21,704 nt of DNA. Source: a virus. Taxonomy: Duplodnaviria > Heunggongvirae > Uroviricota > Caudoviricetes > Drexlerviridae. Both the position numbers and the translations under genes were made by a program. The notes under the pieces were generated by a model, which saw nothing but the letters and a program-made list of their open reading frames with translations, was not told the DNA's origin and made no database searches. The stretch lies in IMG/VR virus record IMGVR_UViG_2534682080_000005; one strand, written 5' to 3'. Below are positions 13,361 to 16,819 of this stretch, piece by piece; position 1 is the first letter of the stretch, and each line of letters starts with the position of its first letter.

Positions 13361-16300
13361 ATGGCAGTACGGATTTCAGGTGTACTGAAAGATGGCGCAG
13401 GTAAGCCGATACAAAACTGCACCATTCAGCTAAAGGCCAGGCGCAACAGCACCACGGTGGTGGTGAACACAGTGGCCTCAGAGAACCCGGATGAAGCCGG
13501 GCGTTACAGCATGGACGTTGAGTACGGTCAGTACAGCGTTATTCTGTTGGTGGAAGGCTTCCCGCCGTCACATGCCGGGACCATCACCGTGTATGAAGAC
13601 TCACAACCGGGTACGCTGAATGATTTTCTCGGTGCCATGACGGAGGATGATGTCCGTCCGGAGGCACTGCGCCGCTTTGAACTGATGGTGGAAGAGGTGG
13701 CGCGTAACGCGTCCGCAGTGGCGCAGAACACAGCAGCCTCATCCGAATCGGCAACGGCAGCCGCAGGTTCAGCAGCACAGGCTGAAGAGTATGCAAATAA
13801 CGCTTCTGACTACGCACAGAATAAGTTCACGTTCTATAAGACTGCCAGCGATCCTGATGGCACCATTGCAGGGTTGGCAGCAACTACTGACGGCCAGTCG
13901 TTCTGGGTAGCTCAGGGGCCAGATGCGCTTTCTGCTGCATGGCAGTATCAAAACAATGCTGGCGTGGCCGTATTGCAGGCAAAGCAGCCAGGCACGGCAG
14001 CCATAACAGGGACAATCCGCGAGTTTCCGACGCTGGCTGCGGCGCAGGCAGACGCAGCTGCGGGTAATATACCGGTGGGATCAACTGCTTATTATCGCAG
14101 CTCAGATGACAATAATCTTTCAATTGAGGTTATCAATACCGCTGGTACGTTGGTAGCAACCGGAAGAAAAATTCCAGCGTATTCCGCTTTGCGTAGAGGC
14201 AACATTTTATTCGACGCATTTAATGAATATTCCTCAAGCCTTTTAACATTCGCTAACTGGGATTGGTATAAAGGCGCTACGCCAACATTTTCTACTACTG
14301 ATGTTAATTTGCCGCTTCCAACACCTGTTATTCAAGCTTCTGGTGTAACATCGTTTGATAAATATTACGATGTGTCAAAATTACAGGTAAAACCAGGAGA
14401 CACTTTAGCTTTCTCTGTTTTGGTATGGTTCGAGAACGCTGGAGGCAAGTTACAGATTTATTGGCTTGATTCAGCAGGAGTAACCATCACTACAGGGGAG
14501 GCCTCTCCACTGGTTGCTGGTATATCCTCTCCGGTTGTGGTCATTGCTGTGCCATCTGGCGCATCATCCATACGAATTCGGGTGCAAAACACTGTGTCAG
14601 GGGCGTTCAAAATCGGTGTCTATGCCGCAGCTATTGGTGATGTTACTCCTGAATTCACAAGGTCTTTCCCTTCAAAAGCGTACCAGGAGGCATTGGGTAC
14701 CCCTGATAACCTCGTGTACGACCCTTTTGGCGAGATGCTTTCCGTTCGTCCTAAGCAAGGACTTCCTGCAGGCGTGGTTGACGCCATGAGTTACGCAGGA
14801 ACATTGATTCAGAACAGCGCAAATTCACCATGGGGTAAGACCGGGATCCAAAACACGTCAGGAGTTGGTGCTGATCGTATTATTTCTCTCAGTTCGATGG
14901 GGGTTAAGCCGGGAGACACAATCACTGTCCGTCTGGCTGCATGGTTCGCGTCAACGGGTGGCACGTTTCAGGTTTTCTGTCGTAATGCATCCGGAGTACT
15001 TTCTTCGGCAACTATTGCCGCATCAGCATCCGGCTTTAATGATGGAAGTACCACGCTGACAATACCAGCATCAACGACATACCTTACGCTTCGCGCATCA
15101 GGGGCTATGGTCAAGGAGCTGGTTGCCATAGGTGTAGCTTTCGGACGATCTCGCCCTGAGTTTATTTACGGTAGCCTTCCAGCAGAGTATTCAGGATACC
15201 AGCGCCAGCAGATTAACCTGTGGCCTGATCCCTGGTATCGCCGCTACGAGTGCGGGGAAACGTGTATTGATGGTTGGGGTCCTGCTCAAGTAGCAGGGGT
15301 TTCACTACCAGCATATGTTGCGGATTATTCTGGCAGCCCGTTTCTTAGGAAAAAATCTCTGATTATCCCAGTAGGTGGTGGTCAGACGGATATTAACATT
15401 TCAGCAAAGCGGCTTGGACTGCGTGCTGGAGATTCGCTGACAGTAGCGCTGGGTGTGGTATCGTCTCAGGCAATCAACGTGGCAGCATATTTCCGGACGG
15501 CTAGCGGGACTGTTATTAGTGACAGTTCGTCTCAGTTGTTCCAGTTCCCAACCCAGCAATATCAGACTCTGGTTCGCACAATAGCTATCACCCAGACTAT
15601 TGTTGATACGGCTGGATATCTGCAAATCCGCCTTATGAATGGGCAGACTGTTGGCGCTGCAGGTGTTTATGTTGTTGCCAGGGGGCTCTTTGTTGGGAAT
15701 GGCTCTCCTGTACTGAGTGATGATACGTACCGACAGGATGTCGATTACACAACTTCCAGAGCATTCACGTTAAATCAGGATTCACTCAGAGAGACACATA
15801 AGCGCCTGATGAACAGGCGGCTTTCTCAGTCAGCAACACTGGTAACAGCGCACATTGGCGATAGCTGGACTCACCTGTGGAACCGATGGAGCGGAATTTT
15901 TGCCGGAAAAATGCAGGCTGACTATGGCAGTGCAGGTATCGGCTATATCGGATTTGGCTATCCGTCTGAGGCGGGTTTCGGGCAGTATAACGGCAATATA
16001 CTTGGTCAGATAACTTTGACCAAAACAGGAACATGGACTCCGACATATGCGGCAGCACAGAGCGCAGATATTTGTAGCGTCTCGTCTTCTGATACCACCG
16101 CTACTTTCAGGGCGAACGGTATACCGGCAAATGCATCGTCAGTCCGCCTTTTTGCTAAACCTCAGGGGAGTGTTAAATACAGCACAGATGGTGGAGTTAA
16201 CTGGACAACTATCGACCTGAGCACGTTCACTGACCTTGCGGTTGTCAGCCTCACGGTACCGGCAACAGCTTTCAATATCTGGTTCAGTCCGGTATCAGGA

Positions 16301-16819
16301 ACCGTTGAACTGTACGGTCTGGATGTGCAGACCGCGACAGATGGTGTCCGGTCTCACAAGCTGGGTGCGACGGGGAGTTCTGCTCAACAATGGGCGGCGC
16401 AGGTTACCAGCGCAACATGGAAAGCAGCATTCACCGCGCTGGCCCCCAATCTGGTGACAATTCTGCATGGGACCAATGACCAGACATCATCCCGTGATCC
16501 ATCCGCGTTTGCTGCCGATATTCAGACGATAATCACAGCAGTTCGCACTGCATGCCCGTTGGCTGATGTTCTGGTGATCATGCCATGTGAAAACCAGAGG
16601 AATAACAATGTGGCAATGGCGGCGTATGCGTCTGTTGTACGGGATGTTTGTGCGCTAAACAGGGTGGCTTATCACAATCTCCAGATTGACTACGGAGACA
16701 AGCCATCTGATTACGCATCGACATCTCCACGCAACTGGTTCAATGCTGATGGAATCCATCCTGACCCTGCAACTGGAGGTGGGCTGCCGATCGTTTCTGC
16801 TGTTTTGAAGTTAATGTAA
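13361..16819 (+). CDS. Side tail fibre protein, chimeric: Stf-like N-terminal anchor, three tandem beta-rich repeat modules, C-terminal SGNH/GDSL-type hydrolase domain
   Basis: Uninterrupted 1152-codon ORF. First ~125 aa (MAVRISGVLKDGAGKPIQNCTIQLKARRNSTTVVVNTVASENPDEAGRYSMDVEYGQYSVILLVEGFPPSHAGTITVYEDSQPGTLNDFL...) recognised as the conserved N-terminus of lambda/Rac Stf. The C-terminus has SGNH blocks: GDSWT (15857-15871), GTND (16469-16480), DGIHP (16748-16762). Three ~100-aa repeats contain V/LKPGDT..W/YF motifs (about 14350-15740). Confidence 0.85.
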   Translation: MAVRISGVLKDGAGKPIQNCTIQLKARRNSTTVVVNTVASENPDEAGRYSMDVEYGQYSVILLVEGFPPSHAGTITVYEDSQPGTLNDFLGAMTEDDVRPEALRRFELMVEEVARNASAVAQNTAASSESATAAAGSAAQAEEYANNASDYAQNKFTFYKTASDPDGTIAGLAATTDGQSFWVAQGPDALSAAWQYQNNAGVAVLQAKQPGTAAITGTIREFPTLAAAQADAAAGNIPVGSTAYYRSSDDNNLSIEVINTAGTLVATGRKIPAYSALRRGNILFDAFNEYSSSLLTFANWDWYKGATPTFSTTDVNLPLPTPVIQASGVTSFDKYYDVSKLQVKPGDTLAFSVLVWFENAGGKLQIYWLDSAGVTITTGEASPLVAGISSPVVVIAVPSGASSIRIRVQNTVSGAFKIGVYAAAIGDVTPEFTRSFPSKAYQEALGTPDNLVYDPFGEMLSVRPKQGLPAGVVDAMSYAGTLIQNSANSPWGKTGIQNTSGVGADRIISLSSMGVKPGDTITVRLAAWFASTGGTFQVFCRNASGVLSSATIAASASGFNDGSTTLTIPASTTYLTLRASGAMVKELVAIGVAFGRSRPEFIYGSLPAEYSGYQRQQINLWPDPWYRRYECGETCIDGWGPAQVAGVSLPAYVADYSGSPFLRKKSLIIPVGGGQTDINISAKRLGLRAGDSLTVALGVVSSQAINVAAYFRTASGTVISDSSSQLFQFPTQQYQTLVRTIAITQTIVDTAGYLQIRLMNGQTVGAAGVYVVARGLFVGNGSPVLSDDTYRQDVDYTTSRAFTLNQDSLRETHKRLMNRRLSQSATLVTAHIGDSWTHLWNRWSGIFAGKMQADYGSAGIGYIGFGYPSEAGFGQYNGNILGQITLTKTGTWTPTYAAAQSADICSVSSSDTTATFRANGIPANASSVRLFAKPQGSVKYSTDGGVNWTTIDLSTFTDLAVVSLTVPATAFNIWFSPVSGTVELYGLDVQTATDGVRSHKLGATGSSAQQWAAQVTSATWKAAFTALAPNLVTILHGTNDQTSSRDPSAFAADIQTIITAVRTACPLADVLVIMPCENQRNNNVAMAAYASVVRDVCALNRVAYHNLQIDYGDKPSDYASTSPRNWFNADGIHPDPATGGGLPIVSAVLKLM

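Follow-up and report, generated by a model that had tools for sequence, protein, structure and literature searches.

Known SGNH Fibres and the Locus under Study

Fibres ending in SGNH hydrolase domains are reported to rank with the commonest enzymatic receptor-binding proteins in temperate Klebsiella phages (Otwinowska et al., PLoS Biol 2026, PMC13123978). Two such Klebsiella prophage fibres, 164_08 and 174_38, hydrolyse p-nitrophenyl acetate, and the SGNH tail fibres of Klebsiella associate with K-loci (PMC13123978). SGNH tailspikes/esterases resembling Ape1 (4K7J, 8GKD) have been reported in Klebsiella prophages (Kolupaeva et al., Viruses 2025, PMC12115436), and a 2026 preprint describes SGNH receptor-binding proteins as recombination-prone 'capsule surface remodellers' (10.64898/2026.05.12.724579). 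In the N4-like E. coli podophage G7C, gp63.1 deacetylates the O-antigen (as cited in PMC13123978). In NmApe1, an accessory carbohydrate-binding module (CBM) is inserted within the SGNH domain (PMC9487903). Here we analyse a stretch of 21,704 nucleotides (nt) of viral DNA, the IMG/VR record IMGVR_UViG_2534682080_000005, referred to below as the window, in which the side tail fibre gene (stf) of a lambda-like prophage joins a lambda Stf anchor to an unrelated distal part with a predicted SGNH esterase at its end.

We consider it probable that this gene encodes a mosaic lambda-like side tail fibre that arose by a cassette swap and is tipped with a polysaccharide O-acetyl esterase. The first-pass annotation of the window, made from the DNA letters and translations, had proposed a chimeric Stf that ends in an SGNH esterase and has a surface polysaccharide as its probable target. 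Comparisons with related prophages, the predicted fold of the C-terminal domain and the conservation of its putative catalytic residues all point in the same direction.

Replacement of the Distal Fibre by an Imported Cassette

The late region of the lambda-like prophage lies within the window (genes of the major capsid protein, FI, Z, U, V, G, T, H, M, L, K, I, J, lom, stf and tfa). The fibre gene follows lom (12697-13296), with J farther upstream, which is the lambda-type order. Its beginning is that of an ordinary Stf, as had been noticed for the first ~125 residues: Pfam PF08400 (phage_tail_N) covers residues 1-132 (E 2e-71), residues 1-94 match the 'Tail fiber protein' of PDB 9e7m (E 9e-52), and nucleotides 1-378 of the gene match the 'side tail fiber' genes of many lambda-like phages at 91-93% identity, with no match beyond them. 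In the single-sequence search of the PDB with the fibre, nothing but this anchor was matched. The remainder of the protein shows no similarity to a canonical Stf, as had also been claimed for the gp37-like distal region. The gp37-like C-terminal tip, which is Tfa-folded in lambda-type Stf, is missing from the fibre and remains only as a detached vestige farther downstream.

The joints of the cassette were located by comparing the window with three other loci. The sibling prophage, L005 of E. coli C21, shares 98% nucleotide identity with the window up to 13738 and from 17625 onward, and between these points it encodes a canonical Stf of 1092 amino acids (aa) that ends in a His-rich gp37-like tip and is followed by tfa. 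A non-lambdoid prophage of E. coli MEI008 (L008), which adjoins intS and tRNA-Arg and has a Baseplate_J/E1_FCCH-type tail, is 97.8% identical in nucleotides over window positions 13756-17425 and carries a 1129-aa fibre and two small genes. The third, a metagenomic locus (L003), is 85.5% identical over 13756-17446, a match that closes with the stop codon of orfB, the second of the small genes. The right joint thus falls between 17447 and 17625, and the left one at the start of the Ala-rich shaft (Table 1). From residue 128, the fibre shares 97% identity with P0203, a K. quasipneumoniae protein of 1155 aa whose N-terminus is unrelated, and other Klebsiella/Raoultella prophage proteins are 88-98% identical to the distal region. 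Altogether, the module was found on four different tail types; in Serratia (L006) the tail is of the phiJL001/BR0599 type, and in L007 the module belongs to a myovirus fibre that has a Tail_spike_N domain.

Horizontal acquisition of the distal part had initially been proposed from a guanine plus cytosine (GC) content of about 40-45% over positions 14100-15800. The measured value for this interval is 48.3%, and only the first of three beta-rich repeats (D1) is low, at 44.6%. The imported cassette as a whole has a GC content of 51%, versus 57% in the flanking lambda tail genes. Base composition is thus weak support for horizontal transfer, and we therefore rely on the mosaic comparisons; L005, L008 and the Klebsiella homologue are far stronger evidence for the acquisition, which they confirm.

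The chimeric gene was also found, at 99.2%-99.5% nucleotide identity, in at least two different lambdoid prophages. One of them (L001) lies near ssrA and has a head module with an HK97-like ClpP-capsid fusion, and the other (L002, E. coli CFS3313) lies near yejM/tRNA-Pro and has a head module of the lambda E/D type; the tail operon is fully intact in both. Since these prophages differ in head modules and integration sites, the chimera itself has spread among lambdoid prophages. It is rare. Of 5426 complete E. coli genomes, 15 have a copy that spans 80% or more of the gene, and in 13 of these the copy is full-length, at 98.5% nucleotide identity or above. An identical protein is already deposited in GenBank (EGX13203.1, E. 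coli G58-1).

One Reading Frame or Two Genes

The fibre gene of the window is read without interruption from 13361 to 16819. In every complete genome that was checked, however, RefSeq/PGAP cuts the intact open reading frame (ORF) into a 'partial' N-terminal pseudogene, named 'prophage tail fiber N-terminal domain-containing protein', and an 'SGNH/GDSL hydrolase family protein'. Taken at face value, this annotation would mean that stf is truncated to a pseudogene here and that an SGNH hydrolase is translated separately from an internal methionine. We attach next to no probability to such an arrangement. The frame is open over 1152 codons in the window, in L001 (15001-18459) and in L002 (19378-22836), and over 1129 codons in L008 (4639-8028). 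PGAP leaves hundreds of in-frame codons unannotated and picks internal Met starts that differ between genomes (16375 in L001, 20389 in L002), whereas the GenBank submitters and PHROG 38670 treat the fibre as a single protein, and all homologues have an N-terminal anchor of some kind. The splitting is regarded as a systematic mis-annotation, i.e., an annotation artefact, which would make such fibres escape surveys of receptor-binding proteins.

The C-Terminal Domain and Its Likely Substrate

The C-terminal domain contains the SGNH signature blocks in their usual order (Table 1). Three of them, GDSWT, GTND and DGIHP, had been recognised in the first-pass annotation, which overlooked block II (LGATG); blocks I, II, III and V are all kept in homologues down to 38% identity. 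Of the 21 homologues aligned over this column, 19 read GDSWT or GDSYT in block I; GDGWT stands in P0047, and the remaining protein, the 27%-identical P0049, is poorly aligned there. In a profile search, block I aligns with IGDSHTA of Ape1. Pfam Lipase_GDSL_2 (PF13472) matches residues 996-1137 at E 6e-14, its score of 53.3 bits lying above the cut-off of 32.9.

An AlphaFold2 (AF2) model of residues 790-1152, built from 23 homologues down to 22% identity, reached a predicted local distance difference test score (pLDDT) of 91.8 and a predicted template modelling (TM) score of 0.91. It has the alpha/beta SGNH fold that the first-pass annotation had expected, broken by an all-beta domain between blocks I and II that had gone unnoticed. 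This insert contains an Asp-box-like sequence, YSTDGGVNWT, with a weak Pfam match to BNR at 940-949. In a Foldseek comparison with the PDB, the Ape1 structures 4k3u (N. meningitidis) and 8gkd (C. jejuni) were far in front (E 2e-19, TM 0.68-0.77), followed by CE2 and acetyl-xylan esterases and then by small SGNH esterases, with a probability of 1.00 to many SGNH structures; superposed over its full length on 4k3u, the model has a TM of 0.77. When a sequence profile was compared with PDB sequences, 4k3u was again the top match (E 1.5e-10), in an alignment that takes in blocks I and III as well as the insert.

By analogy with G7C gp63.1 and the two active Klebsiella prophage fibres, the esterase would most likely remove O-acetyl groups from capsule or O-antigen. 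Peptidoglycan, the substrate of Ape1, is an unlikely target, judging from the distal position at the fibre tip, which should meet capsule or O-antigen. It is also quite improbable that the domain is a lipase, phospholipase or lipid A deacylase attacking lipids of the outer membrane rather than polysaccharide acetyl groups. Names such as 'GDSL-like lipase/acylhydrolase' for the Pfam family and 'lysophospholipase L1-like esterase' for some homologues would suit a lipid target, as would the TesA-type thioesterases/lysophospholipases lower in the Foldseek list, but the nearest structures by a wide margin are carbohydrate O-acetylesterases (Ape1, then CE2 and acetyl-xylan esterases). Moreover, the Ape1-type inserted beta-sandwich and the three beta-sandwich-like domains that precede the SGNH domain are typical of glycan-active enzymes, capsule or O-antigen would be encountered first by a fibre tip lying 1000 residues from the tail, and the characterised phage SGNH receptor-binding proteins are deacetylases (PMC13123978).

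The selection acting on the fibre was assessed by comparing the window with the L003 copy in a protein-guided codon alignment. The ratio of nonsynonymous to synonymous substitution rates (dN/dS) came to 0.039 for the whole comparison and to 0.015 for the SGNH domain, with dS near saturation, and these values argue that the fibre protein has been kept by selection. Enzymatically dead receptor-binding domains do occur among phage fibres, and the SGNH domain could accordingly be a pseudo-enzyme or lectin that serves infection by binding, without catalysis. We hold this for very improbable, given that all putative catalytic and oxyanion residues are retained in homologues as distant as stated above, that dN/dS in this domain is as low as 0.015 and that two related Klebsiella fibres are active (PMC13123978).

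The same comparison with L003 revealed an uneven history of the module. For residues 146-447 dS is 0.10-0.19, and for residues 448-1152 it is 1-2.5, with dN low throughout. This jump in dS near the boundary of the first two repeats (D1 and D2) indicates that a second, more recent exchange has its joint there, and the values for the distal part (aa 448-1152) imply a long separate evolution under strong constraint.

Proposed Origin and Mode of Action

The cassette took the place of all that lay past codon ~127 in an ordinary gp37-type stf and brought in fibre residues 128-1152 together with two small genes, orfA and the UmuD'-like orfB. Its source was probably a non-lambdoid, Baseplate_J-type prophage that was co-resident, and the module circulates between E. 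coli and Klebsiella. Downstream of the cassette, the final ~60 codons of the old stf were left stranded, along with an intact tfa, its chaperone gene.

In the resulting virion, the conserved N-terminal anchor would dock the fibre on the lambda tail tip, a role supported by homology, and the shaft would trimerise. Three jelly-roll-like beta domains per chain may then bind the surface polysaccharide, with tentative fold assignments for the domains and a presumed binding function. Judging from the model and the alignments, Ser835, Asp1130 and His1133 are predicted to act as the catalytic residues, the oxyanion hole being formed by Asn1039 and either Gly1002 or Gly1005, and would remove O-acetyl or similar ester groups from capsule or O-antigen, an activity and a substrate proposed from relatives. 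Deacetylation would make adsorption reversible and receptor-modifying, the virion would pass the glycan layer to the receptor of the J protein, and host range would be altered.

More tentatively, and with a probability below even, we suggest that a glycan-deacetylating side fibre here takes the place of an OmpC-type Stf and may recognise an O-acetylated glycan common to E. coli and Klebsiella. A shared surface glycan as the target is proposed because the module is 97% identical (protein) between the two genera and is under strong purifying selection. If this were true, lambdoid phages would have gained a route to encapsulated or cross-genus hosts, the fibre would be the first characterised esterase Stf, and the systematic gene splitting in RefSeq would have hidden a class of esterase Stf proteins in E. 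coli. An active fibre would mean that lambda-type phages can, by swapping a single cassette at the joint of anchor and shaft, trade a side fibre directed at a protein receptor for one that modifies capsule or O-antigen. Such a swap bears on host-range prediction and on the engineering of lambda-based vectors against encapsulated Enterobacteriaceae. In addition, L005 and the window form an unusually clean before/after pair, and together with the donor-type L008 they offer material for studying fibre swaps.

State of the Prophage Copy and the Middle Region of the Fibre

The split tail genes of this copy and the poor model of the middle region, both described in this section, weigh against an active, polysaccharide-directed fibre in this prophage. 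Relative to the intact proteins of L002, the products of Z (1603-2182), H (4169-6728), L (7054-7750), K (7759-8498) and J (9131-12627) are each spread over two frames in the window, with single-base indels at 7519, 7842 and 11874 and a divergent patch at 5143-5337 in the tape-measure gene H. If real, these frameshifts would leave the prophage unable to build tails, and with five frameshifted tail genes the window's copy of the fibre may never reach a virion. The lesions reflect either prophage decay or draft-assembly errors; sequencing errors are conceivable, as the source is apparently the draft genome of E. coli G58-1 and those lesions that were localised consist of single-base indels.

The fibre might accordingly be a relic here, encoded by a defective prophage, not assembled into particles and without current function. 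The split tail genes would fit such a state, and the stranded 3' end of stf and tfa testify to a past rearrangement. We judge it unlikely that this describes the fibre, considering the possible draft errors mentioned above, the presence of nearly the same gene in prophages with intact tail operons at two sites (L001 and L002), and the dN/dS of 0.04.

The carbohydrate-binding role of the middle region is conjecture. The first-pass annotation had described three tandem beta-rich repeats of ~100 aa, each with a V/LKPGDT motif and W/YF. Three tandem beta-rich units are indeed present; their period, however, is 172 aa, and the motifs are not shared by all of them: KPGDT occurs at 344 and 516, the third unit (D3) has RAGDS at 688 in its place, and W/YF is lacking in D3. 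A BLASTP self-comparison of residues 271-830 detected no internal repeat. The copies are too diverged for a direct self-match and were seen only through intermediate homologues and profile-profile alignment. One domain of remoter homologues matches both D1 (~58%) and D2 (~34%, E 2e-14), and hhalign, applied to cleaned alignment sets, joins D1 and D2 with a probability of 98.3% (E 2e-14) over 156 in-register columns. D3 aligns with D1 and D2, also in register, with a probability of 59-67% and E values of 5e-5 to 9e-5, compared with 0.16-0.5 in reversed-sequence controls. These comparisons show D1 and D2 to be clear homologues, with D3 a probable third copy that has diverged.

The AF2 model of residues 220-800 has a mean pLDDT of 54.5, with the repeats all-beta. 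A word-indexed homologue search with residues 446-800 returned close relatives only, and the poor quality of the model is attributed to this shallow alignment. With the middle model as query, Foldseek listed tandem CBM22, CBM-like C-terminal domains of Cry/Vip3 toxins, EngBF and the Klebsiella K2 tailspike, all with TM below 0.3, and the repeats had no match in Pfam. Carbohydrate-binding beta-sandwiches are a plausible, if tentative, assignment. Between the anchor and the repeats, the Ala-rich stretch of the shaft is probably helical and would form part of a trimer, and residues 220-270 form a small alpha/beta domain with a pLDDT of 80-91.

Features of the Locus and Neighbouring Genes

The positions of the features discussed are collected in Table 1.

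Table 1. Features of the chimeric fibre gene and of the genes downstream of it, with positions in the window
Feature	Position	Strand	Evidence or remark
Chimeric side tail fibre gene (stf)	13361..16819	+	1152 aa, one open frame
Lambda Stf N-terminal anchor, aa 1-127	13361..13741	+	PF08400, PDB 9e7m, identity to L005
Left recombination joint, aa 126-132, start of Ala-rich shaft	13738..13756	.	L005 identity ends at 13738; L003/L008 start at 13756; P0203 from aa 128
Shaft/neck of imported module, aa 128-275	13742..14185	+	Common to Klebsiella phage and prophage fibres
Repeat D1, aa 276-447	14186..14701	+	KPGDT at 344; AF2 all beta, core pLDDT 77-91; GC 44.6%, the gene's lowest
Repeat D2, aa 448-619	14702..15217	+	KPGDT at 516; hhalign and homologue bridge to D1
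Repeat D3, aa 620-791	15218..15733	+	RAGDS at 688; probable divergent third copy; low AF2 confidence
C-terminal Ape1-like SGNH esterase domain (predicted), aa 792-1152	15734..16816	+	AF2, Foldseek, profile search, Pfam
SGNH block I, GDSWT, aa 833-837, putative nucleophile Ser835	15857..15871	+	Conserved; Ape1 alignment
Beta-sandwich inserted in SGNH fold between blocks I and II, ~aa 858-1000	15932..16360	+	AF2 all-beta, fragment residues 72-213
SGNH block II, LGATG, aa 1001-1005, putative oxyanion-hole Gly (G1002 or G1005)	16361..16375	+	Both invariant in alignment A1
SGNH block III, GTND, aa 1037-1040, Asn1039	16469..16480	+	Invariant N250/D251 of A1
SGNH block V, DGIHP, aa 1130-1134, Asp1130 and His1133	16748..16762	+	Invariant D341/H344/P345 of A1
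orfA, 79 aa, co-transferred cargo	16891..17130	+	phrog_3893 (function unknown), E 1e-37
orfB, 105 aa, UmuD'-like; stop codon is the right end of the cassette	17130..17447	+	phrog_3469 'UmuD-like protein', E 2e-46
Vestigial 3' end (~60 codons) of replaced gp37-like stf	17616..17804	+	Positions 738-794 of 794 in phrog_295 'tail fiber protein'
tfa, tail fibre assembly gene, 194 aa, leftover partner of replaced tip	17804..18388	+	PF02413 Caudo_TAP, E 6e-45

The first of the two small genes, orfA, follows the fibre gene in L001, L002, L003, L004 and L008, is reduced to a remnant of 36 residues in L007 and is absent from the Serratia locus L006. Both small genes are missing from the Serratia locus and L007 keeps no more than a remnant, which rules out orfA and orfB as obligatory partners (possible chaperones) of the fibre. 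The product of orfB matches UmuD/UmuD' in the PDB (E 1e-4); its start falls exactly on Gly25 of UmuD, the N-terminus after cleavage, and SGGYV replaces the catalytic SGDSM of UmuD. As a UmuD'-like protein carried along with the fibre cassette, it may act for the prophage as a modulator of SOS mutagenesis and not as a chaperone of the fibre.

The segment of ~170 bp between the end of the cassette and the stf vestige (17448-17615) had no match to the donor-type loci or to the sibling prophage. The vestige itself matches the C-terminus of the canonical Stf of L005, and the annotations of L001, L002 and L005 name tfa a 'tail fiber assembly protein'. Downstream of tfa, the window (18389-21704) is low in GC, at 37.5%, and this part is common to L005 and not to L001/L002, which carry other cargo at this place (GIY-YIG, DUF2971/DUF4236). 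It includes a minus-strand ORF of 386 aa at 18615-19775 that belongs to phrog_19262, a family of unknown function, and is probably the gene called 'Ea47 family protein' in one RefSeq record of the sibling prophage.

Comparison with Known Systems

The C-terminal domain is widespread. An exhaustive HMMER search with residues 790-1152 yielded 1221 clusters (50% identity) at E<=1e-3 and 236 at E<=1e-30, nearly all with the match at the C-terminus of proteins of 400-1300 aa, and PHROG 38670 'tail fiber protein' spans residues 117-1152 of the fibre. The relatives found among isolated phages were all distant, at 34-40% identity, and each bears the annotation of a tail fibre protein; they include those of Proteus phage Mydo and of the Klebsiella siphophages KpV2811, ZX4 and KpV522. 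Among predicted viral structures, the proteins of Proteus phage Mydo and Klebsiella phage Sin4 matched with TMq of 0.92 and 0.80, respectively. Neither the full module nor its fusion to a lambda Stf occurred in any of 50,697 phage records.

That temperate enterobacterial phages carry SGNH esterase fibres has, as a general principle, been published before. The novelty is lower than the first-pass annotation implied (PMC13123978, PMC12115436, PHROG 38670, EGX13203.1). It lies in the fusion with lambda Stf: a full-text literature search retrieved no paper pairing 'side tail fiber' with SGNH, and the Stf-anchored version appears undescribed, yet it is a predictable outcome of known modular exchange.

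With lambda Stf, the fibre shares the anchor of residues 1-127, the place of the gene after J and lom, and the downstream tfa; it differs in that the entire shaft and the gp37-like receptor-binding tip are replaced, and the new tip is predicted to be enzymatic. Ape1, its best match in both structure and sequence, has the same SGNH blocks and a CBM-like beta-sandwich inserted after block I (PMC9487903). The identity to Ape1 is 12-16%, and Ape1 is a free periplasmic enzyme acting on peptidoglycan, whereas the domain described here would sit at the tip of a virion fibre. The tail fibres of Mydo, Sin4, KpV2811, ZX4, KpV522 and PIN1 also end in an Ape1-like SGNH domain with the insert, in their case combined with other N-terminal and middle architectures.

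From E. coli itself, the functional precedent is G7C gp63.1, a virion-borne SGNH esterase for which polysaccharide deacetylation is cited as an adsorption step. In contrast to the fibre of the window, gp63.1 is a podovirus tailspike of a different SGNH subfamily, and it was found neither among the top 50 Foldseek matches in the PDB nor in the profile search of PDB sequences. The SGNH fibres of Klebsiella (PMC13123978, PMC12115436) are likewise long prophage fibres with a C-terminal SGNH domain, but in E. coli lambdoid prophages the module, which stands among prophage tail genes, is carried on the lambda Stf anchor (PF08400).

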